A stretch of DNA of 58,553 bases from Candidatus Deferrimicrobium sp. Its GTDB lineage: Bacteria; Zixibacteria; MSB-5A5; GN15; FEB-12. Position numbers and translations under genes: made by a program. Position 1 is the first letter of the stretch, and the number at the start of each line of letters is the position of its first letter. The notes under the pieces are model-generated. The model was not told where the DNA came from, made no database searches, and was given only the letters and a program-made list of their open reading frames with translations. The stretch covers positions 1-58,553 of the forward strand of contig DATMWY010000204.1 of the NCBI GenBank assembly GCA_035562415.1, in the 5' to 3' direction. Shown in pieces: positions 3,040 to 50,980 of the stretch.

Positions 3040-5394
3040 CTATTTGACCAATTCGCGCAGCCGCTGCAAAACATCGACTCGGAAAGTAGCGCCCGCGGCC
3101 GGAGACCAGCCGACATCGTGTTCGAGCCGAGCCAGCGCGCGGTAGAAACCGTGCCGGGCGCTCAAACCGTTCAGTTCGGCGTCACGGGCGTTGTCCATGG
3201 CCTCAAGGAGAGCAGTCAGGCCGAGCCGCCCGGCCTCGTACTCCTCCTGTACGAGTTTCAGGTATCCAACGGCCAGCTCGGCGGATCGTAGTACTCTGGG
3301 CGTGCTGTGCAACTGCGCCAGGAGATCGTATATGTCGGCGCGAACGTTTTTGATCACGTCCAGTCGCACGGCATCCTGTTCGAATTCGATTCGGTTCAAT
3401 TCCGCTTTCAGCCGGGTACGCTCTCGCAGGCGGTCAGTGCCCAGAAAAAGCGGCCAGACCACTCCGCCCCACACCGACCACGTCGTGTGCTCTTCGGTGA
3501 ACACCGGCGGATCGTCAATCAATTCATCGTTGAAGTTGAGCGATCCGCGAATATCGAGCGTCGGCAGGAAGCGGGCCGTGTTCCTGCCGATCTGAAGCCG
3601 TTGAACGGAGACGTCGATATCGGCCGCCAGCACATCGGGGTGATTCTTGAGTGCCTCTTTGACAAGTGCTTCCTGGAGTCGGGCCCGGGAAGCTGCGCCG
3701 GCGGACATGGCGTCAAGCAGGCCATAGTCGTTCCAAAAGCGGGCTTCCGTGATGGCGTTGGTATCAAGCAGCAACGGGTCATCGGATGGCAGATTGAGCA
3801 GCGCGTTGAGCACAACTCCCGCAATTTGCACCTGTCCTTCGGCCGTCGCGATATTCGATATTGCCTGGTGTCGTTCATTCTGCCAGCGCAACAAATCAAT
3901 TTCGCCTTCTCGCTCATAAACCGTCCGGGCGCCGGCGGCCTCGAGGTTGTGCGCGACGAGTATCTGATACCGGCGATTCACTCCGAGGACTCCCCCGGCC
4001 TCAAGATGATCGAGATAGGCATTGGTCGTAGTGTTCTCCATATCCAGTCGGGATCGTTGAAGATTGGACACCTCGCGTTCTCGTTGCCGGCCGGCGATTT
4101 GGATGGTCCTGATTGCCGGGGCAGAAAAGAGGACCTGATGCGCTTCAAGCGAAGACGTAAGCGGGTTGCTCTGCAGCGTGCCGCGCGAATTGGCGACCGT
4201 GCGTTCGTCCAGATGCGCCGCCGACGCGCTGGCGCTTATCTGGGGTAGATATAAGGAATGGGTGCGCCGGTACTCCTGTGCGGACGCTTCAACGGCTTCC
4301 CGGCGGGCCAAGAGCCCCGGATTGAATGACAGTGCGCGGTCGACCGCCTGCGCGAGCGTTAACGGGGCGACCGATTCGGGCGGCGGGGCAGCAATGAGCA
4401 GCGCGTCATTGCGGATCTCCGCAGGGAGGCTGATGCGGCATTGGCGTGCCGTCAACTCGTGGATTGCAAGCATCTCCCCGTTTCGAGACTCAATCGGCAG
4501 ATCTGCCGGACGTTCTCCCCTGAAGATGCGCACTGCCTTGAGCGCGTTGAACCGCGAGTCCGAAACCGTCGAGAAAGCCGAGTTGCAGGCGAAGGCTCCT
4601 CTTTCGACTATGAGCAGCGGCTCAGCCGTGAAAACGGGTATCCCCTGGCGAGAGATTCTGGCCAGGAACTCCACCATCTTCGTTTCATTCATTCCCCACA
4701 GCGGCGGGAGGTACAGAGCGTCAACCTTCTCTGAAAGCTGGTTGTACGCTTTGAAAAACGCGTACGTGCCATAGTTGTCAACGCCACTGCCGGTGACGAC
4801 ATCAAATCCAAGACTATCGCCGAGAGAGTCAATAGCTGCAATTATGCCGGGGCTTTCGTCTCCGGACGGGAAGTAGAGCGCCCCCAATCGCTTGACAGTG
4901 ATGAGTTGAGTCAAGGCGCTCAGGTCTCTTTGGAGTCGCCCGGGTTTTGTCTGCACCGTCAGGTTGGGCGCTATCGGTTTGCCATCGGCGCCGATCAATC
5001 CCTGCGCCACCGGGTCGAATTGATGCATGGCCAGTATTGGCCGATCAAAACCGGCAGCCAGAAGGTCCTCCACCACCCATGGCCCGAGCGCCACGACCAT
5101 GTCGATGCTCTTGAGCGCTGTCAGCTCACCAGCCATGATGCGGCAGGAATCGCGCTTCCAGCCGGCTGAACGATAACCCTCCGGCACAAACGCGGCCTCG
5201 TACTCCTTCGGAAGCAGCAGACGCAACTGGCGGTCGAATTCAGCGCGCAGGATCGCATGAACCGGATACAGGCCACCCTCGAAATAACCGAGACGAAACT
5301 GCTTTGGCGGCTGGGCCAAAAGCGACGGCGTAATTGTCACGGGAGAGGCGGCAACGACGGCAACGGCAAGATAACGGACAATGGTTCTTAACAT
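3040..5394 (-). CDS. Exported fusion protein: ABC_sub_bind-like periplasmic binding domain (N-terminal ~330 aa) + TolC-family outer-membrane efflux channel (C-terminal ~440 aa)
   Basis: 784 aa with signal peptide MLRTIVRYLAVAVVAASPV. The N-terminal half resembles BMP/ABC_sub_bind binding proteins (DMVVALGPW, ILAMHQFDPV, NLTVQT, IPVFTAEP, RPADLPIE). The C-terminal half has two OEP-type repeats with long helical segments. Confidence 0.8.
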   Translation of the reverse strand: MLRTIVRYLAVAVVAASPVTITPSLLAQPPKQFRLGYFEGGLYPVHAILRAEFDRQLRLLLPKEYEAAFVPEGYRSAGWKRDSCRIMAGELTALKSIDMVVALGPWVVEDLLAAGFDRPILAMHQFDPVAQGLIGADGKPIAPNLTVQTKPGRLQRDLSALTQLITVKRLGALYFPSGDESPGIIAAIDSLGDSLGFDVVTGSGVDNYGTYAFFKAYNQLSEKVDALYLPPLWGMNETKMVEFLARISRQGIPVFTAEPLLIVERGAFACNSAFSTVSDSRFNALKAVRIFRGERPADLPIESRNGEMLAIHELTARQCRISLPAEIRNDALLIAAPPPESVAPLTLAQAVDRALSFNPGLLARREAVEASAQEYRRTHSLYLPQISASASAAHLDERTVANSRGTLQSNPLTSSLEAHQVLFSAPAIRTIQIAGRQREREVSNLQRSRLDMENTTTNAYLDHLEAGGVLGVNRRYQILVAHNLEAAGARTVYEREGEIDLLRWQNERHQAISNIATAEGQVQIAGVVLNALLNLPSDDPLLLDTNAITEARFWNDYGLLDAMSAGAASRARLQEALVKEALKNHPDVLAADIDVSVQRLQIGRNTARFLPTLDIRGSLNFNDELIDDPPVFTEEHTTWSVWGGVVWPLFLGTDRLRERTRLKAELNRIEFEQDAVRLDVIKNVRADIYDLLAQLHSTPRVLRSAELAVGYLKLVQEEYEAGRLGLTALLEAMDNARDAELNGLSARHGFYRALARLEHDVGWSPAAGATFRVDVLQRLRELVK

Positions 5395-5519
5395 GACTGT
5401 ACTATAGCCTTTCCGGACACAGGCAAAAACAACGGATGATGATAGCCAATTGCCGGTTGCCGTTAAAGTGAAATTCGCGGGCGGGGAAACGGCGGTAGGG
5501 CGAAATCAGGTACGCTTGT

Positions 5520-5587
5520 TAGGTCGAAATCTCCTCGTGGGTTTCGACCTACACAAAACTTCGTGGGTTTCGACCTACACAAAACTT
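5520..5587. repeat. Perfect tandem duplication of a 26-bp unit, combined with a 10-bp inverted repeat
   Basis: The unit cgtgggtttcgacctacacaaaactt occurs at 5536-5561 and 5562-5587. TAGGTCGAAA (5520-5529) is complementary to TTTCGACCTA in each unit. Confidence 0.85.
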
Positions 5588-5736
5588 GATGTAACGGACA
5601 CTGAAAGTGGGTCGGGTTAGGTTACCCGAGAAGGTGTTCACATGGTGGAAAGGCGTCGTCAGTACCATCGGCAGTTTAAGGAGCAAGCGATGATTGGTAC
5701 CGAGGTGTATTATAACCGATTTGCCGGTTGCCGAGC

Positions 5737-6087
5737 TTACTCTTTATCGAGCGCCTTAAATTCGCCCGTGATCTCGATGCGCACGTTGTATCCCTCAACC
5801 TGCGCCGGGATCTTTCCTTCCAGTTCACTAGCCGGTCGGCTGGCCATCACCACGATACACGGAGCGCCGTCACACTCACCGATCCCGGTCCCTTCCACGC
5901 CCGGAATGGCCATCCAGTGCTCAGTGTGATCGGCCAACACCTGTTCAATTGTTTTTCGAGCCACGGTTGGATCCTTTTGCGTTTCTCTTTTGTCGGCACA
6001 ACTTGTGACCGCGCAGGCAACAATGACCACGCCGACACCGAAGAGCAGCGCGAATATCGATGAGCGAGTTATGGCGTAATTGCACAT
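5737..6087 (-). CDS. Small lipoprotein homologous to the pro-region of the adjacent S1 protease
   Basis: 116 aa. Signal peptide and lipobox (VACAVTSC). WMAIPGVEGTGIG..VRIEITGEFKAL aligns with LMRIPGVVGTGTS..VEIEQTGPFKAL of the 6164-7189 product. Confidence 0.6.
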   Translation of the reverse strand: MCNYAITRSSIFALLFGVGVVIVACAVTSCADKRETQKDPTVARKTIEQVLADHTEHWMAIPGVEGTGIGECDGAPCIVVMASRPASELEGKIPAQVEGYNVRIEITGEFKALDKE

Positions 6088-37029: not shown

Positions 37030-37989
37030 CTAATCGTCATGCTCCTTTTCCGGTCGAACCCATCGAACGACAGCCCGACTGAAAGCCTCAAAGTAAAGCG
37101 AAAGAAGGAGGGCACCGCCTGCAAGTACAGTAACTCCTCCGACCAATATCCACCATCCAATCGACTGGCCACTCACTACGAGACTCAGACCTATGCCTCC
37201 TAGATATTGAGTAAGTCCCCCAACTAATGCCACTGAGCCTGCGAAGATAGCAATATTAAATACTGAACGACTAATACCCGGACGCTTGGATGCTCTGATG
37301 AGGGTCCGGAGAACGTGACTTTCAAGCGCACGGATAGTATATGCACACACGAGCTGCCGATAAAAGTCGCGGCCGTCCGGCTCGTACATGTGATAGAACG
37401 TATCACCGCCATAAAACTCGTTACGAGGGTCAATGGGATCAATGGCGGCATTTGCAAAGGCAGACTTCGTCTCGTTGACTCTGTTCGGAATGACTGGTCC
37501 AAGGATATCAAAGGCCATCCGACTTGCCATACTTCTAAGTAGTACATCTCCAGTTGATAGGAACAGGCTATTGTTCTTATCAACCCCATAACCTTCATCA
37601 CGAAGGTGTGAGTGGTATTGATGAGCGAGGTCTCGAATCGTTAACAACCGACCTTTCGCTTCCTCCCGCGACGGTCTGCGGGAGCGATCTTTGCCCCAGA
37701 GGATTTCCTTAGCTTTCTCCTCAGCGAATCCAAAGTCTGCAATCACAAGATCATAAGGACCATTGCGCGATACGCGTTCGATATTTCGAATCGTTTTCTC
37801 AGAGACCTTCCAAAAACCTGGCTGCTCTGGAATTTCATCAAGCTCAACATCAACATGGTGAATATCCAATATCACCGTAACATCTTCATGAACCACACGA
37901 TGACCAGCCAACAGCTTTTCAAGTGCGACATTCATGTCCTCATCGTCGTCGATGAGTATTAGTCGGTACCGAATCATTCGCTGTCGCAT
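37030..37989 (-). CDS. Orphan protein: receiver-like N-terminal domain + two C-terminal TM helices, family unknown
   Basis: 319 aa, GGAGG upstream of the ATG. YRLILIDDDEDM and YDLVIADFGF resemble REC beta1/beta3. C-terminal hydrophobic segments VFNIAIFAGSVALVGGLTQYLGGIGLSLVV and IGWWILVGGVTVLAGGALLLSLYF. Spot G+C is lower than the flanks. Confidence 0.7.
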   Translation of the reverse strand: MRQRMIRYRLILIDDDEDMNVALEKLLAGHRVVHEDVTVILDIHHVDVELDEIPEQPGFWKVSEKTIRNIERVSRNGPYDLVIADFGFAEEKAKEILWGKDRSRRPSREEAKGRLLTIRDLAHQYHSHLRDEGYGVDKNNSLFLSTGDVLLRSMASRMAFDILGPVIPNRVNETKSAFANAAIDPIDPRNEFYGGDTFYHMYEPDGRDFYRQLVCAYTIRALESHVLRTLIRASKRPGISRSVFNIAIFAGSVALVGGLTQYLGGIGLSLVVSGQSIGWWILVGGVTVLAGGALLLSLYFEAFSRAVVRWVRPEKEHDD

Positions 37990-42101: not shown

Positions 42102-44651
42102 CTAAAACAGTATGACCAGTTTCCCGATCTGCACGCCGCCGTGCTCGTCCTCAACCGTCCAGTAATACAGTCCGGAGACGACCATCTGAGTGTTGCGGGT
42201 GACCAGGTCCCACTCTTGATAGGACGAGTTTGGGTCCGATCGGTCGAAATCATGTTCGATCGCCCGAATCAAGTCGCCGTCGAGAGAAAATATCCGGATA
42301 GTGCATCGGGCCGGCAGATTGGCGAAGGTGATTTTCCGCACTCGATCGTTTGAACGATCTTCCTCTCCCCGACCTTCATACCCCGCGTCACGGTAGCCGG
42401 CATCGCCTCGGTACGGATTGGGATAAACATAGACGTTGCCGATTTTGTCGGGAGCTTCGGCGCTCTGACTGTTCGGGTAGGCCGACAGTGCCGTTCCAGT
42501 CTTGGACGATTCCAAAGGCGCCAATTCCGACTGGGGCGAGCCGACGTCGTAGGCGGTCACGGCAATAAAGTAAGGGACACTGGACAGCAGGCTCCTGATT
42601 TCAAACTCATATTCGTAGTACTTGAGCAATCCCTCGGCCGTCAGCTGCTCCGGACGGGCCTGATCAAGCGGGCCGGGTTCGGGTTCTTCGGGACATACCT
42701 TTCTGATAGGCGTCGAAACTCCCCACTCATCCTGGTTGAAGTCATGCGCGTCAAAGTAAAAGATGGAATCCGGAAACCGAGGATGCACATACGGGTAATC
42801 GGACGTAAACCGGAGGGGATCGAAACCGCTGTCCGAACAAGGGTCTGTTCCGCGGCCGTACAGGCAGCGAAGCTGTTCCAACGTGAACGGATCCTCCAGC
42901 TGCTGAAAGCCGGGATTGCGGCGCCGTTTGGCGCTGTACACGTATTTGTCATAGTTCTCCCGGTCATACTGCGCCACGAGCGAAAAACTCGTCTCTCGCG
43001 GGTCGCGGGCTATGTAAATCCGATACCCTTCAAAATCGATCAGGTTCGAAAAGATGTCTTTTGTTCTCTCCGAAAAGGTACCGTTGAAACGAATCTTCAG
43101 ACCGCCGAGTGTCGGCGTCACCCAGAAACGAGGCGCTGGCGGAGCTTCGGCCGCCTTGAGATCGGGTATGCCGTCCCCGCGAAAGTAGGTTGTCTCCCCT
43201 TCGCACGTCACGAATTCGCCCCGGTACTCATCGCCATCGGTATCATATCCGGGAATGTCGTATACCCAATCTGCCGTCACCGCGTTATCGATCAGCGAAG
43301 AAAAATCGACGTTTCTGTAATAGGCATCGGGGTTATAACGATTGCGCAGATTCGAACTGAAATTGCTGCGCACGGAATGGAATTCCTCGCCGGCCACAAA
43401 GGCGATGGGAACGGAAATGGAACCCCCGGGGAGCAATACGTACGGCCCCGACGAGAGAAGCTGCTGCACGTCGACGCCCAGGACGACTCGTTCCGCCGCC
43501 CGCTGACTGGGCATAACCCATACCGGGTCCCAACTGCCGATGGTGCGGGCAAAGGCCTGATCATAATCCACCTCGTCGTTGCTCAAGAGCCAGTAGAACC
43601 GACGATCACCATAGGGAGTGCCGGTGCCGTTGCCCATAAAGCGGTACTTGCCGCGACTCTGCGGCCCGAAGTCAAAGTCGGGACTATAATTGTAGACCCA
43701 CCAATTGTAGGTCATGGGGCGGTTCGACGCCGCCGGATGTAAAAACCTGACCCCGGCCACGTGCGGCACCTGAAATCCCCCGCCGCTCAATGGATCACCG
43801 TCATTGTCGGCCGTCCAGGCGATGCCCAGCGTGTCCATAAACTCACACTCCCCGCGAGTAACCGCGGAGGTGAAGAGGTACCCCGACAAGTCGTCTCTGC
43901 CACCGGTGGTCCCCTTGACCCCCCATGGTTCAACTCCCCCAAGCAGGCGCTGACCCGGATGGACATCCCCGTCCCAGTACATGCCAATGTACGCGTCGCG
44001 GAGTACCTTATCCCCAATGTTGCGAATCTCGAACACGATTATAACGAAATCGTCCGTGTGGCCATACGACCAGGCATAGGAGCGTTGCGTTACTTCGAGG
44101 TTTAACGGTTTATGTCTTCGACCTTCCAGGGCATCGAACGTGGGATAAGGCCCGCGGGCCACCGTGTCGACGTATACGGCGACAAAGTCCTCTTCCGAAA
44201 CCGCCTCCAACCGATCCGGGGAGTCGAAATCGACGACCGACCTGTGCAGAAGGTCAAAGACGGGATACATCTCGCTATTGTCGTTATTAAACTGATTGGC
44301 CGTGGTCACAAGCGTGTCTCGACCGACAACGGCTCCGATCCACAGCGCCCCTTTGTACAGATACGTCGTGTTCGATCCCTTCGGATACTCCCCCAGCGGC
44401 GCCAAAACACCTGTGAAGCAGTCCAAGCGCGCTACAACTCCTCGGCCGACGCCAACGCGACCGAAATTCGTTACACCAAAAACCAATCGGCCAACGTCGT
44501 TCAAACCGAGGCAGTACGGGACCCCGGCCGCGGCTTGCCGCATTTCTTCTTCCTTCGTGTCCGAGCTCTGGCCCCCGGCATCGAGGATCATTAGCAGAGA
44601 TAACAGCGCTGAAGCTGCGAAGACTCGAGTTATTGTACGAAGCTGTCTCAC
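42102..44651 (-). CDS. Large secreted hypothetical protein with T9SS-like C-terminal domain
   Basis: 849 aa. GTG start and signal peptide (RVFAASALLSLLMILDAGG). C-terminal VYVYPNPY..ITFANLP..TIRIFSLDGDLI..GLYYW. No family recognised for the body. Confidence 0.75.
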   Translation of the reverse strand: MRQLRTITRVFAASALLSLLMILDAGGQSSDTKEEEMRQAAAGVPYCLGLNDVGRLVFGVTNFGRVGVGRGVVARLDCFTGVLAPLGEYPKGSNTTYLYKGALWIGAVVGRDTLVTTANQFNNDNSEMYPVFDLLHRSVVDFDSPDRLEAVSEEDFVAVYVDTVARGPYPTFDALEGRRHKPLNLEVTQRSYAWSYGHTDDFVIIVFEIRNIGDKVLRDAYIGMYWDGDVHPGQRLLGGVEPWGVKGTTGGRDDLSGYLFTSAVTRGECEFMDTLGIAWTADNDGDPLSGGGFQVPHVAGVRFLHPAASNRPMTYNWWVYNYSPDFDFGPQSRGKYRFMGNGTGTPYGDRRFYWLLSNDEVDYDQAFARTIGSWDPVWVMPSQRAAERVVLGVDVQQLLSSGPYVLLPGGSISVPIAFVAGEEFHSVRSNFSSNLRNRYNPDAYYRNVDFSSLIDNAVTADWVYDIPGYDTDGDEYRGEFVTCEGETTYFRGDGIPDLKAAEAPPAPRFWVTPTLGGLKIRFNGTFSERTKDIFSNLIDFEGYRIYIARDPRETSFSLVAQYDRENYDKYVYSAKRRRNPGFQQLEDPFTLEQLRCLYGRGTDPCSDSGFDPLRFTSDYPYVHPRFPDSIFYFDAHDFNQDEWGVSTPIRKVCPEEPEPGPLDQARPEQLTAEGLLKYYEYEFEIRSLLSSVPYFIAVTAYDVGSPQSELAPLESSKTGTALSAYPNSQSAEAPDKIGNVYVYPNPYRGDAGYRDAGYEGRGEEDRSNDRVRKITFANLPARCTIRIFSLDGDLIRAIEHDFDRSDPNSSYQEWDLVTRNTQMVVSGLYYWTVEDEHGGVQIGKLVILF

Positions 44652-47106: not shown

Positions 47107-47991
47107 ATGATAGATTTTAGTGATAAGCAGTACAAAGTCAAAGTTGGCCTGGCCGAGATGCTTAAGGGGGGAGTCATTATGGACGTCACCTCCGATGAGC
47201 AGGCCAAAATCGCGGAGGCGGCCGGTGCGGTCGCAGTGATGGCGCTGGAGCGGGTGCCGTCGGACATCCGGGCGGAAGGAGGCGTGGCCCGCATGGCCGA
47301 TCCGGAGATTATCGAGGCGATCAAACGCGCTGTCACGATTCCGGTTATGGCCAAATGCCGCATCGGGCACATCGCTGAGGCGCAGGTGCTTCAGGCGCTG
47401 GAAGTGGACTTCGTCGATGAATCCGAAGTCCTCACTCCTGCCGACAACAAAAATCACATCAACAAATGGCCGTTCAAAGTTCCCTTTGTCTGCGGCTGCC
47501 GCAACCTGGGCGAGGCGCTGCGGCGAATCTCGGAAGGCGCGGCCCTGATCCGCACGAAAGGCGAGGCGGGCACGGGCGACGTCTCCGAAGCGGTCAAGCA
47601 CCTGCGGGAGATTAACACTGCCATGAAGGCACTGACCGTTTTGCCGGAGGATGAGCTTTACGGAGCCGCTAAGGAGCACCGGGTCTCAATTGAACTGGTC
47701 AAAGTGGTGGCCAAGACCGGCAAACTACCGGTGCCGAATTTTGCCGCCGGCGGGATTGCCACGCCAACCGACGCAGCGTTGTGCATGCTGCTGGGTGCGG
47801 AGTCAGTCTTTGTCGGCTCCGGCATTTTCAAGTCCAACAATCCGGACAAACGCGCCAAAGCGATTGTAAGCGCCACCACGCATTATCAGGACCCGGCAAT
47901 CGTTGCCGAAGCTTCCCGTGGCCTTGGCGGCGCCATGAAGGGCATCCAGGCCCTCTCCATCCCGCAGGAAGAGCTGCTGCAGACGCGGTAG
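47107..47991 (+). CDS. pdxS: Pyridoxal 5'-phosphate synthase, synthase subunit
   Basis: 294 aa: [42 protein letters not shown].. is near-canonical PdxS. Confidence 0.95.
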
Positions 47992-48019
47992 GACAGGATT
48001 AGACGATGACCCAGATTCC

Positions 48020-48724
48020 ATGAATTATAGTATCTATTGTGACGAAAGCTGTCACTTGGAAGGGGACCACCACCCCATCATGGTCCTGGGCGCAGTTTGG
48101 TGTCCCACCTCTTTGACGCGGGCGATTTTCAATCGCATACGAGAAATTAAAATTCGGAATGGATTGAGTCGTGAGTTTGAAGTCAAATGGACGAAGGTTT
48201 CCCCTTCTAAAAACCAAATATACCGTGACCTGCTGGATTATTTCTTTGATGACGACCACCTACATTTCAGATGTCTAGTTGCTGAAAATAAGTACAACCT
48301 GCAACACACCCTGTTTGGTCAGGACCATGATACTTGGTACTACAAAATGTATTTTAATTTGCTGAAAGTGATACTCTCTCCGCACGACACCTTTAGGATC
48401 TACCTCGATATCAAGGATACTAGGTCCGAAAGCAAAGTCGCCAAGTTGCGCGATGTCTTATCGAACAACATGTACGATTTTCAGCGTCGGATTATCGAGC
48501 GAATACAGACCGTCAGATCACATGAAGTGGAGTTAATTCAGCTTGCCGACCTCTTAACTGGGACTATTTCATACTTAAATCGCGGTATTTCGACCAATGA
48601 GGGAAAACTAGCTCTCGTAACACGGATGCAGGAACGTTCTGGCTATCAGCTCACTCAGACCACACTCCTTAAAGAAGAGAAATTAAATCTCTTCAAGTGG
48701 AAACCGGTGCTGCCAAAGTCATGA
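48020..48724 (+). CDS. DUF3800-family protein
   Basis: 234 aa. N-terminal IYCDES acidic motif, C-terminal VELIQLADLLTGTISY. Starts 28 nt after the pdxS stop. AT-richer than the flanks. Confidence 0.8.
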   Translation: MNYSIYCDESCHLEGDHHPIMVLGAVWCPTSLTRAIFNRIREIKIRNGLSREFEVKWTKVSPSKNQIYRDLLDYFFDDDHLHFRCLVAENKYNLQHTLFGQDHDTWYYKMYFNLLKVILSPHDTFRIYLDIKDTRSESKVAKLRDVLSNNMYDFQRRIIERIQTVRSHEVELIQLADLLTGTISYLNRGISTNEGKLALVTRMQERSGYQLTQTTLLKEEKLNLFKWKPVLPKS

Positions 48725-49203
48725 ACGATGAAGTTTCGTGGCTTCCGTCTCTGGTGTTTCTGAGCGCATTCGACGGTGATTGGGAAAGGTACGTGGAGCA
48801 ACTCTACACGTATTTCAAGCAAGATTTCGTCTATTCGCCACCGTTCTTTCGAGGCCAGCGCATCGGGTTAAAGAGGTTTCCCATAACCAAAGGCAAGGAG
48901 GCAACCTTCTGGCACCTAATATCGACTGGTACCAAAGAGCATTATCGGTATCCGGACTTGCGCCGTTGCGAACGAATTAGATGGCCAAGAGCGATCATTG
49001 AGAACGCCGAAGATTCAGTAGTGAAAACCTGGGAAAACATAAGAAATGGCGAAAGGCGCCAGCTTCTCTGGCTGGAACAGCATGAATACTTGGTGATTCT
49101 CGCGCGAAGGGCTGGCTACGCGCTACTTTGGACAGCGTACTTGGTAGATACGTCGCATCAAAGGCGAAAGCTTCAGCAAGAATTCGAGGAATTCCATCAT
49201 TGA
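48721..49203 (+). CDS. Hypothetical protein, translationally coupled partner of the DUF3800 gene
   Basis: 160 aa. Its ATG overlaps the upstream TGA (ATGA at 48721-48724). Protein-like composition (FWHLISTG..RCERIRWPRAIIEN..YLVILARRAGYALLWTAYLV). No family recognised. Confidence 0.7.
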   Translation: MNDEVSWLPSLVFLSAFDGDWERYVEQLYTYFKQDFVYSPPFFRGQRIGLKRFPITKGKEATFWHLISTGTKEHYRYPDLRRCERIRWPRAIIENAEDSVVKTWENIRNGERRQLLWLEQHEYLVILARRAGYALLWTAYLVDTSHQRRKLQQEFEEFHH

Positions 49204-49311
49204 TTAAAAGGCTGACGCCGCCCCGTTTCCGGAACGGCGTCGTTACTCCTTCTACGCATGGTAGATGAGCTTTTTGCTTAATCAACACTTAATATCGTAT
49301 TACTTTAACAC

Positions 49312-49340
49312 TTGTCAAGTACTTCTCAAGTATTTGACAA
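49312..49340. promoter_or_regulatory. 13-bp imperfect palindrome (operator-like) overlapping a TTGACA hexamer
   Basis: TTGTCAAGTACTT-ctc-AAGTATTTGACAA (12 of 13 complementary). TTGACA lies at 49334-49339 and a TATAAT at 49386-49391. Confidence 0.45.
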
Positions 49341-49496
49341 ATTCTTTTGCAGCCTAAGGACAGCCTCGCGTTCAGAAGCTGCACTTATAATGTACATAAT
49401 CTGCTATCGTTTTGAGATATAAGCAGTTACAGGGATCTCGCAAACGACTGAATTGTGATACCTCAATCTCTTCGACTCGAAGTATCTTTCATATCC

Positions 49497-50222
49497 ATGT
49501 CCCGCATCGAATGGACCTCCTCCACCTGGAACCCCGTCACCGGCTGTGACAAGGTCAGTGCCGGGTGTGAGCACTGTTACGCCGAGCGAATGGCGCGGCG
49601 GCTGCAGGCGATGGGAGTAGGCAAATACCGTAACGGCTTTAAGGTGACACTACATCCCGACGTGCTGGATGCGCCATTACAGTGGAAAAAGCCGCAAATG
49701 ATTTTCGTCAACTCCATGAGTGATCTGTTCCACCCGGAGGTGCCCATCGAGTTCGTTCAGCGGATTTTCGATGTAATGAATCGCGCGAATTGGCACGTCT
49801 TCCAAATCTTGACCAAGCGGTCAAAGCCACTAAAGAGACTGCACAGTCGGTTCAGTTGGCCGGAAAACGTCTGGATGGGTGTGACCGTCGAAAGTCGGCA
49901 CTACACATATAGGATAGACGACCTGCGTCAAACGGATGCAAAGGTAAAGTTCCTCTCCCTCGAACCGCTGCTGAGCTCCCTGCCCGGTCTTAACCTGAAT
50001 GGGATCGACTGGGTCGTGGTGGGCGGTGAATCCGGACCGGGCGCGCGGCCAATGAAGAAAGAATGGGTGATTGACATTCAGGCACAATGTCGGCGGCAAG
50101 GCGTTTCCTTTTTCTTCAAGCAATGGGGCGGAGTGAACAAGAAGGCCACCGGCAGGCTCCTCAATGGCCGAACCTGGGATGAAATGCCGTCGATCTCGCC
50201 GGTATTACAGCTAAGCTTGTAG
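49497..50222 (+). CDS. Phage Gp37/Gp68-family (DUF5131) protein with three-Cys motif
   Basis: MSRIEWTSSTWNPVTGCDKVSAGCEHCYAERMA..FVNSMSDLFH..FLSLEPLL..DWVVVGGESGPGARP..FFFKQWGG. Confidence 0.88.
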   Translation: MSRIEWTSSTWNPVTGCDKVSAGCEHCYAERMARRLQAMGVGKYRNGFKVTLHPDVLDAPLQWKKPQMIFVNSMSDLFHPEVPIEFVQRIFDVMNRANWHVFQILTKRSKPLKRLHSRFSWPENVWMGVTVESRHYTYRIDDLRQTDAKVKFLSLEPLLSSLPGLNLNGIDWVVVGGESGPGARPMKKEWVIDIQAQCRRQGVSFFFKQWGGVNKKATGRLLNGRTWDEMPSISPVLQLSL

Positions 50223-50380
50223 ACATCGTTGAGATTGCCGCGTCGTCCCGATATTTGCATGTCGGGACTCCTCGCAATGACCGCACTGAGGTTTTCCGGC
50301 AGGCCCTCAGTTTGGGGGTGCCGCCCGTGATACTCTTTCGTATCTTGGCACAAACCGGTAACTGACTTGTTGAATACACG

Positions 50381-50980
50381 ATGAACAAATACTCGAGTCT
50401 GAAAGTCGGCGTCCTGGCGCTTCAGGGGGATTATGCGCGGCACTGCTATCAACTTGAACTGCTTGGAGTTACGCCAGTCGAAGTGCGCACCGCAGAAGCT
50501 CTTGTGAAAGTCGCGGCGCTGATAATCCCCGGCGGTGAGTCGACCACGATAAACACGCTCATCGATCGTTTTGACCTGCGCCGGCCGCTGGTCGAATTCG
50601 GCCAGGCGAAGGGCGTTTGGGGCACTTGTGCCGGTATGATTATGATGGCCAAAAACGTTGAGGAGAATCGGGCCGGACTCACTCCGCTGGGTCTGATCGA
50701 CATCGACGTCGTTCGCAACGGCTATGGTAGACAGGTCTTTTCATTTGAAGAATCACTGACTGCCGATCTCGGCAACGGCCCGGCCGGTCTCACGGCAACT
50801 TTCATCAGGGCGCCCAGAGTGACGCGGCTGGGGGCTAAGGTACAGGCGCTGGCCGCGTATCGGAACTCGCCCGTGCTGCTCCGGCAGGGACATCTCGTGG
50901 CCAGTTCGTTTCACAGCGAATTGGATGATGACACGACGTTGCTGCGATATTTTTTGCAAAAGGTTGTTGGCGGAGCTTAA
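50381..50980 (+). CDS. pdxT: Pyridoxal 5'-phosphate synthase, glutaminase subunit
   Basis: KVGVLALQGDYARH..LIIPGGESTT..WGTCAGMIMMA..SSFHSEL. Confidence 0.93.
   Translation: MNKYSSLKVGVLALQGDYARHCYQLELLGVTPVEVRTAEALVKVAALIIPGGESTTINTLIDRFDLRRPLVEFGQAKGVWGTCAGMIMMAKNVEENRAGLTPLGLIDIDVVRNGYGRQVFSFEESLTADLGNGPAGLTATFIRAPRVTRLGAKVQALAAYRNSPVLLRQGHLVASSFHSELDDDTTLLRYFLQKVVGGA

Follow-up and report, generated by a model that had tools for sequence, protein, structure and literature searches.

What separates pdxS from pdxT in contig DATMWY010000204.1 (assembly GCA_035562415.1, Candidatus Deferrimicrobium sp.), a stretch of 58,553 nt that we analyzed at full length and refer to as the window? The two genes lie on the plus strand at 47107–47991 and 50381–50980, and both assignments, made in an original prediction from the sequence itself, hold above the NCBIfam equivalog cut-offs (PdxS, 493.6 bits with a cut-off of 395, and Pfam SOR_SNZ at E 9e-105; PdxT, TIGR03800, 184.1 bits with a cut-off of 105.55). 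The 2.4 kb between them had been presented as a single, undescribed three-gene cassette. We find that it consists of two unrelated accessory elements. Element 1, from 48020 to ~49320, is a complete three-part RlfAB module made up of homologs of the phage P1 genes rlfA and rlfB and a convergent small RNA (sRNA) gene, and element 2 is an orphan DUF5131 gene. We regard this division of the insert, into an RlfAB–sRNA module and a DUF5131 gene that has nothing to do with it, as nearly certain.

What had been stated about the sequence itself all holds, and it is the interpretation that changes. The open reading frame (ORF) map reproduced the gene coordinates, the 28-nt gap between the pdxS stop codon and the start of gene 1, the gene overlap and the peptide motifs that had been reported. 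Gene 1 (48020–48724, plus strand) contains IYCDES and IQLADLLTG and matches Pfam DUF3800 (E 7e-16) as well as the PADLOC model PDC-M04A (E 1.1e-92). Gene 2 (48721–49203, plus strand, 160 amino acids) overlaps it by the four nucleotides ATGA (48721–48724) and matches PDC-M04B (E 1e-64). P1 RlfA and RlfB match the same two models. When gene 2 was used as a tblastn query, phage records yielded P1 RlfB and P7 RapB at 36–37% identity (36% for P1 RlfB), together with Bifidobacterium phage Bbif-1, and 103 plasmid records matched, mostly P1-like elements. Gene order in P1 is rlfA (DUF3800, 234 amino acids) followed by rlfB, with stop and start codons overlapping as they do in the window; the products are 234 and 160 amino acids long in the window, and 234 and 154 in P1. 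By these sequence matches genes 1 and 2 are rlfA and rlfB homologs belonging to PADLOC candidate PDC-M04, and we call them rlfA and rlfB below. Contrary to what had been thought, the pair is thus not new in itself. The earlier view that gene 2 has no nameable family stands for Pfam and NCBIfam, where it has 0 matches, but not for PADLOC or for its P1 homolog. In several E. coli and Salmonella RefSeq records (e.g. NZ_CP158318.1, 9620–9731) the rlfB homolog is named ‘oxidoreductase’ or ‘replication protein’, names for which the present analysis offers no support.

The third component lies directly downstream of rlfB. When the DNA following rlfB was aligned for four loci, whose proteins share only ~60% identity, ~30 near-invariant bases stood out behind a G+C-rich hairpin of variable sequence. 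A covariance model of this element identifies a single copy in the window, at 49208–49272 on the minus strand (68 bits, E 5e-15). A marginal match at 43579–43654 on the plus strand (20 bits, E 0.027) is probably noise, because control loci reach the same level; no match above 20 bits was found in 816 kb of control loci. The element adjoins rlfB in 15/15 distinct RlfAB loci, those of P1 and Bbif-1 included, and stands behind rlfB in every protein-identified locus whose sequence continues past that gene. The four of the 15 that were collected once the model existed carry it at 69–73 bits. Across loci its 3′ end falls between −20 and +30 nt relative to the rlfB stop codon. The original prediction had listed a hairpin at 49214–49241 and an operator-like palindrome in the spacer; both are present, and the hairpin belongs to a conserved minus-strand sRNA gene that had been missed.

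In the window this gene is ~80 nt long (~49284–49205, minus strand, with ends placed from the promoter and U-tract) and converges on rlfB. Read on the minus strand, the sRNA has the form 5′-AG-CUCAUCYRCCAYGYGURGAARGAG, a 4–6 nt linker, a terminator hairpin and a U-tract. The 5′ hairpin (49246–49269, CUCAUCUACCAUGCGUAGAAGGAG) comprises 3 + 5 near-invariant base pairs with a 1x2 internal loop and a pentaloop, and the terminator hairpin (49214–49241) is followed by a U-tract at 49209–49206. Sequence in the terminator stem varies while pairing is kept, around a conserved C-G/G-C/U.G core, and one pair of the 5′ hairpin is U-A, C-G or A-U in 81, 15 and 1 copies, respectively, a variation not forced by the search pattern. 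The structure was tested on a plain MAFFT alignment of 58 distinct copies. Paired cells amounted to 89% versus 37–58% in slid controls, cells changed on both sides numbered 85 versus 21–41, and the covariation score was 0.329 versus 0.179 ± 0.010 for shuffled alignments, with 0 of 500 shuffles reaching the observed value.

Several signals bear on the strand from which the sRNA is read. One stem pair is A-U in 60 copies and G-U in 39 (39/99), and since the G-U alternative would be an A.C mismatch on the rlfAB strand, the sRNA is placed on the minus strand. A T-rich tail follows the hairpin on the minus strand in 18/25 RlfAB-linked copies. Sigma-70-like promoters are found in 17/24 RlfAB-linked copies, compared with 3–4% of random windows, and in most of these 17 the promoter ends 7–8 nt upstream of the conserved hairpin. 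The promoter of the window copy (49291–49318, minus strand, TTGACA-16-GATATT) matches 10/12 positions and is the best promoter-like site in 47900–50450. Wherever a tRNA gene lies within 500 nt of an sRNA copy that stands apart from RlfAB in a phage, the two share a strand (24/24 cases). An sRNA on the rlfAB strand is rejected on the G-U pairs, the T-tract, the promoter and the tRNA co-orientation taken together; to judge from these signals, the sRNA is transcribed from the strand opposite rlfAB.

Over the −35 box of the sRNA lies the palindrome (49312–49340), which has 13-nt arms that are 92% complementary. It could be a pair of back-to-back divergent −35 boxes, or else an operator or repressor site. 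Similar TGTCAA...TTGACA dyads are present at the equivalent place upstream of the sRNA in two distant loci, L084 and L104. Among RlfAB loci only L087, which is embedded in a type I restriction-modification (R-M) system, has two sRNA copies; they are in tandem, ~200 nt apart (5682–5742 and 5487–5546, 66.8 and 51.8 bits). Searches of Rfam 15 gave no match for 5 kb with E values up to 1 allowed, or for the 321-nt spacer with values up to 10. Nor did the element match Rfam in P1 or in the related RlfAB loci; the P1 locus, L103, gave one weak, unrelated match ~2 kb away from it. Of 5426 complete E. coli genomes in RefSeq, 121 have the sRNA in P1-like elements, and neither there nor in phage P1 itself is it annotated. 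The obligatory sRNA and its phage-borne orphan copies are undescribed to the extent that Rfam 15, the annotation in RefSeq and the literature open to searching can show.

The genomic surroundings of the relatives fit the anti-phage flavor that had been proposed for a coupled gene pair. In each of the 14 other distinct RlfAB loci rlfA and rlfB are adjacent, co-oriented and coupled as they are in the window, which upholds the suggested co-occurrence of DUF3800 with gene 2 homologs; the suggested co-occurrence with DUF5131 failed in the same loci (0/14). RlfAB lies within or at the end of type I R-M operons in L087, L093, L306 and L309, between DUF1156 protein and PLD-SNF2 helicase genes in L086, after an Eco57I/N6-methylase gene in L097, and after a DUF499/HEPN_Swt1 gene in L100. 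It stands beside a TIR-domain gene and a HEPN/nucleotidyltransferase pair in L307, and beside a transposase and a PIN gene in L305. Overall, 7/9 non-phage loci are in or adjoin R-M, BREX-like or DISARM-like operons. In several relatives hsdM or hsdS overlaps at its end with the rlfA start, and riding on another operon's transcript is therefore typical of the module; no promoter of its own is evident for rlfAB in the window copy. The PADLOC PDC set comprises 145 candidates that were selected for embedding in BREX, DISARM or type I R-M systems. In the window the pair is embedded in pdxS–pdxT and in none of these, and such a placement within a housekeeping operon is unusual.

RlfA (234 amino acids) and RlfB (160 amino acids) are both predicted to form compact alpha/beta folds. 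With the AlphaFold2 (AF2) model of RlfA (predicted local distance difference test score, pLDDT, 87), the top Foldseek matches in the PDB are archaeal and human RNase HII/H2 and RNase HIII (1eke, E 2.5e-6, probability 1.00; 3puf, template modeling (TM) score 0.55; TM range 0.5–0.55). RlfA as modeled has an RNase HII-like nuclease fold, and published statements on DUF3800 agree. Residues D8, E9, D104, D130, D133, Q174 and D177 are invariant in 42 homologs. RlfA has no RNase HII family match in Pfam or NCBIfam, and a sequence search of the PDB returned only three unrelated matches (E 0.03–0.07). The structural comparison that had been proposed was less informative for RlfB (AF2 model, pLDDT 91.7), for which Foldseek found nothing significant in the PDB (best E 0.18); the BFVD search gave one uncharacterised homolog only, and sequence searches of the PDB returned 0 matches for RlfB and 0 for the DUF5131 protein. 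A RelE/barnase-like toxin fold, floated earlier for gene 2, was rejected on that same best E value and on RelE/HigB matches with TM scores of 0.25–0.31. The RlfB family contains 1633 clusters at 50% identity; because the best 150 of these span 104–255 amino acids, mostly ~155–190, no large RlfB fusion is evident.

Copies of the sRNA also occur apart from RlfAB. A pattern scan of viral contigs gave at least 120 loci, which with 11 loci reached via RlfB make at least 131 motif loci. Among the motif loci listed, RlfAB lies within 3.5 kb in 36/131, and 95/131 are without it. The orphans stand in ordinary phage context, with Pfam terminase, portal, integrase, GIY-YIG and HNH domains nearby, and DUF3800 is not among the 25 most frequent Pfam families in 150 ORFs from 54 orphan loci. 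Again among the loci listed, 24 of 74 unique orphans lie no more than 500 nt from a tRNA gene, and a promoter of their own is found in only 9 of 71 orphan copies. In 3/15 scanned loci (L136, L164 and L175, all in phage contigs) the sRNA is adjoined by DUF3800-VIII RNA (RF03075), ~50–100 nt away on the same strand (e.g. L164, 683–706 and 799–865), and no DUF3800 protein was detected near these three orphans. L138 contains a ROOL RNA in the same locus as the orphan sRNA. Pfam PF04308 (RNaseH_like, best E 1.5e-41) accounts for two of these 150 ORFs, which may represent a different RNase H-like neighbor of the sRNA.

We next consider how the insert came to lie in the operon. The 35 long ORFs of the window have a mean G+C of 0.564 (sd 0.032). 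On this scale rlfA (0.438, z −4.0) and rlfB (0.493, z −2.2) depart from their surroundings, gene 3 is host-like (0.554, z −0.3), and the 293-nt spacer between genes 2 and 3 has a G+C of 0.413. The contrast in composition noted originally is thus borne out, and genes 1 and 2 and the spacer are compositionally foreign to the window. A scan of one genome per GTDB species yielded 80 pdxS loci. Relatives of genes 1, 2 or 3 were found in 0/80, so the insert is accessory and not ancestral, as anticipated. pdxT lies downstream of pdxS in 44/80 loci, at a gap of −4 to 761 nt that is 35 nt or less in 29 of the 44. In L002 (77% PdxS identity) and L005 the order rrf2–pdxS–pdxT–ispH is that of the window minus the insert. 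The module formed by genes 1 and 2 is horizontally acquired. In the two closest relatives, L001 (84% PdxS identity) and L004 (89%), pdxT does not adjoin pdxS, and L001 has a SocA/Panacea antitoxin-domain gene (4576–5616, minus strand) and a neighboring ORF between rrf2 and pdxS. Since relatives show both the separation of pdxT and this insertion, the pdxS neighborhood tolerates small accessory inserts, and modules of this kind appear to land there repeatedly.

Neither the ORF map nor Pfam revealed an integrase or transposase ORF in the insert, in keeping with the earlier account. The sole repeat flanking the insert is a weak direct repeat with 11/13 identity at 47997–48009 and 50372–50384 (GATTAGACGATGA and GAATACACGATGA); these imperfect 13-nt copies bracket the entire 2.4 kb, and copy 2 spans the pdxT start codon. 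The repeat could reflect target duplication or chance. Target-site duplication was considered and not adopted, as only this 11/13 repeat is present and the empty-site junctions are uninformative. On these observations the insert does not qualify as a transposon or integron cassette, which a recombinase together with terminal repeats or attC would mark.

Two further features of the window deserve mention. An ORF at 37030–37989 (minus strand, 319 amino acids, no Pfam family) has a G+C of 0.486 and a third-position G+C (GC3) of 0.447, the window's lowest outside the insert, and is perhaps a further gene of foreign origin. Among the species representatives of GTDB, the nearest relatives of PdxS and Rrf2 come from metagenome-assembled genomes (MAGs) of Zixibacteria and Ignavibacteria (84–89% and 77% PdxS identity), and the NCBI label Candidatus Deferrimicrobium sp., set against these relatives, may be questionable with respect to taxonomy or binning.

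Gene 3 (49497–50222, plus strand) encodes a DUF5131 protein (Pfam, E 8e-102) that also matches PADLOC PDC-M30B/M41B (E ~1e-120), so that the proposed PADLOC check returned matches for all three genes. It is related to radical-SAM proteins: DUF5131 is entered as a radical-SAM subgroup in RadicalSAM.org. The nearest curated model, NCBIfam TIGR04471, scores 86.6 bits, far short of its cut-off of 355. The canonical radical-SAM CxxxCxxC is absent from gene 3, which has the three-Cys motif GCDKVSAGCEHC, C-x6-C-x2-C. DUF5131 is common in viral contigs, which hold 467 relatives, and 80 loci were fetched for comparison. Directly upstream of DUF5131 in 49/80 is a gene for a protein of ~370 amino acids, TcmP (TIGR04474, PDC-M30A/M41A). 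The window gene shares with this TcmP–DUF5131 pair (PDC-M30/M41) its DUF5131 protein with the three-Cys motif, and differs in that TcmP is absent from the whole window (tblastn, best E 0.42); tblastn likewise found no TcmP remnant in the spacer. RlfAB is found in 0/80 DUF5131 loci. As gene 3 lacks TcmP, has no RlfAB in 80 related loci and is host-like in composition, we take it to be a separate orphan element.

The sRNA occurs near DUF5131 in 1/80 of these loci. This is L229, the contig of L132, a 100-kb viral contig in which a promoter-bearing orphan sRNA (~3438 in L229) lies ~0.5 kb upstream of a DUF5131 gene (4001–4690) whose product is 68% identical to that of gene 3 and which is likewise without TcmP. 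Being the only case among 80, the proximity is probably coincidental, and for the same reason sRNA and DUF5131 were rejected as a unit.

How does the module compare with known systems? It shares with P1 rlfA–rlfB (rapB in P7; PDC-M04) the PADLOC models, the gene order, the start/stop overlap and a convergent sRNA after rlfB. It differs in that RlfB identity is only 36%, and in location: the P1 pair follows the lytic replicon behind a C1 operator, whereas the window pair is in a housekeeping operon. Weinberg et al. 2017 (PMC5737381) describe 11 DUF3800-associated RNA motifs, I–XI, and the sRNA resembles them as a structured RNA that adjoins a DUF3800 gene, lies on the opposite strand and ends in a Rho-independent terminator. 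It differs in having no Rfam 15 match, and could equal one of the 11 if that motif is missing from Rfam. The protein pair is a new member of a listed candidate family, and the sRNA fits the published DUF3800–RNA pattern.

Type VII retrons combine a reverse transcriptase with a DUF3800 RNase H2-like effector and a dedicated non-coding nucleic acid. Common to both is a DUF3800 RNase H2-like protein beside a dedicated non-coding nucleic acid; the window has instead an ~80-nt, terminator-ended sRNA and an RlfB partner. No reverse transcriptase ORF is present in 47992–50380, msr/msd is absent, and no retron RNA was found with Rfam. ToxIN, a type III toxin-antitoxin/abortive-infection system, has as its antitoxin an array of tandem repeats that precedes the toxin gene on the same strand. 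The likeness to ToxIN is confined to the proposed logic, in which a nuclease is neutralized by a small RNA and a phage-borne RNA provides escape. The window RNA, by contrast, is single-copy, convergent and downstream, which is not a type III arrangement, and the RNase HII-like fold of RlfA differs from that of ToxN. Type I toxin-antitoxin systems have a small hydrophobic toxin, for which proteins of 234 and 160 amino acids do not qualify, and only the 3′ overlap is similar.

Type VII retrons and the 11 published motifs provide a precedent for a DUF3800 effector with a nucleic-acid ligand. The function that we prefer for RlfAB and its sRNA is that of an RNA-regulated nuclease module, probably anti-phage. 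RlfA would be the nuclease effector and RlfB its partner, with the sRNA as the cognate RNA ligand of RlfA/RlfB. The features recognized would be the 5′ hairpin, which is invariant, and the C-G/G-C/U.G core conserved in the terminator stem, and the bound sRNA would hold the nuclease inactive in the manner of an antitoxin. Once phage infection lowered the sRNA level, the nuclease would be set free, and orphan phage copies would act as counter-defense decoys. For the full model, in which the sRNA is expressed, binds RlfA or RlfB and restrains the nuclease, the module is anti-phage and the orphans are decoys, we estimate a probability of about 0.2–0.3. A number of points weigh against it. PDC-M04 is a candidate system, with a defense role proposed from its embedding, and the window copy stands in a housekeeping operon and not in a defense island. 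P1 rlfA and rlfB are non-essential, and their knock-down by CRISPR interference (CRISPRi) is without phenotype. Defense, toxicity and RNA binding are putative properties of the module; a catalytic role for the invariant acidic residues of RlfA is suggested by their positions in the sequence; and expression of the sRNA is predicted from its sequence signals. Unlike known RNA antitoxins, the sRNA is single-copy and convergent. Its action could be confined to cis, through antisense pairing or termination, and the orphans in phages could do something that has no connection with RlfAB.

The cis alternative takes the RNA to be a bidirectional terminator and convergent antisense that tunes rlfAB mRNA, in the way of type I systems with 3′ overlap, and that neither acts in trans nor binds protein. 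Its 3′ end abuts or overlaps the rlfB stop codon at −20 to +30 nt, and the plus-strand hairpin is not followed by a T-run, so that read-through from rlfAB would be antisense to the sRNA. Against this, the 24-nt 5′ hairpin is near-invariant from E. coli phage P1 to the Bifidobacterium phage to this MAG, over which range RlfB identity falls to 28–37%, and the 95 motif loci listed that are without RlfAB have no rlfAB to regulate. We consider the cis-only account unlikely. A different possibility is that the module serves the replication or maintenance of mobile elements, with RlfA processing RNA primers or R-loops and the sRNA acting as primer or regulator, chromosomal copies then being leftovers of such elements. 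The P1 pair follows repL/oriL behind a C1-controlled operator and is annotated as ‘possibly associated with lytic replication’, with nothing further; the RNase HII-like fold of RlfA and the presence of the pair in temperate phages and P1-like plasmids (the 103 plasmid records) would suit the same role. Yet rlfA and rlfB are dispensable to P1 and give way to different cargo in some P1-like plasmids, most non-phage copies have no replicon in their vicinity and are embedded in R-M, BREX-like or DISARM-like operons, and phage genes are absent around the window copy. A replication role strikes us as quite improbable.

The idea with which the analysis of this locus began, that the DUF3800 gene, its partner and the DUF5131 gene function together as a single cassette, is the least credible, and we give it very little weight. 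The three genes have the same orientation and are grouped between pdxS and pdxT, and the viral contig L132/L229 brings the sRNA to within ~0.5 kb of a DUF5131 gene 68% identical to gene 3. But DUF5131 is missing from all 14 other RlfAB loci and RlfAB from all 80 DUF5131 loci, the usual upstream partner of DUF5131 is TcmP, which the window lacks, and z values of −4.0 and −2.2 for genes 1 and 2 stand against −0.3 for gene 3.

The RNA-regulated nuclease module proposed here bears on a family of wide occurrence: DUF3800 recurs in retrons, in CRISPR accessory loci and among genes embedded in defense operons, and at least 11 RNA motifs have been linked to it. The P1 RlfAB/PDC-M04 subfamily comes with a specific sRNA that has a promoter and terminator, in 15/15 loci, which turns a loose association into a defined three-part system, open to test in the classical model phage P1. 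RlfAB-type modules can lodge in housekeeping operons, where searches based on defense islands or embedding would miss them. The phage-borne orphan copies suggest an arms race at the level of RNA. It is conceivable, although we rate the chance as low, that RlfA, RlfB and the sRNA constitute a new class of RNA-gated immune module that phages counter with promoter-less orphans carried in tRNA clusters; that the phage response also includes other DUF3800-associated RNAs, such as DUF3800-VIII, is similarly doubtful. If true, an RNA-gated module would account for what the DUF3800 RNA motifs do, a question since 2017, and P1 would provide a ready experimental model.

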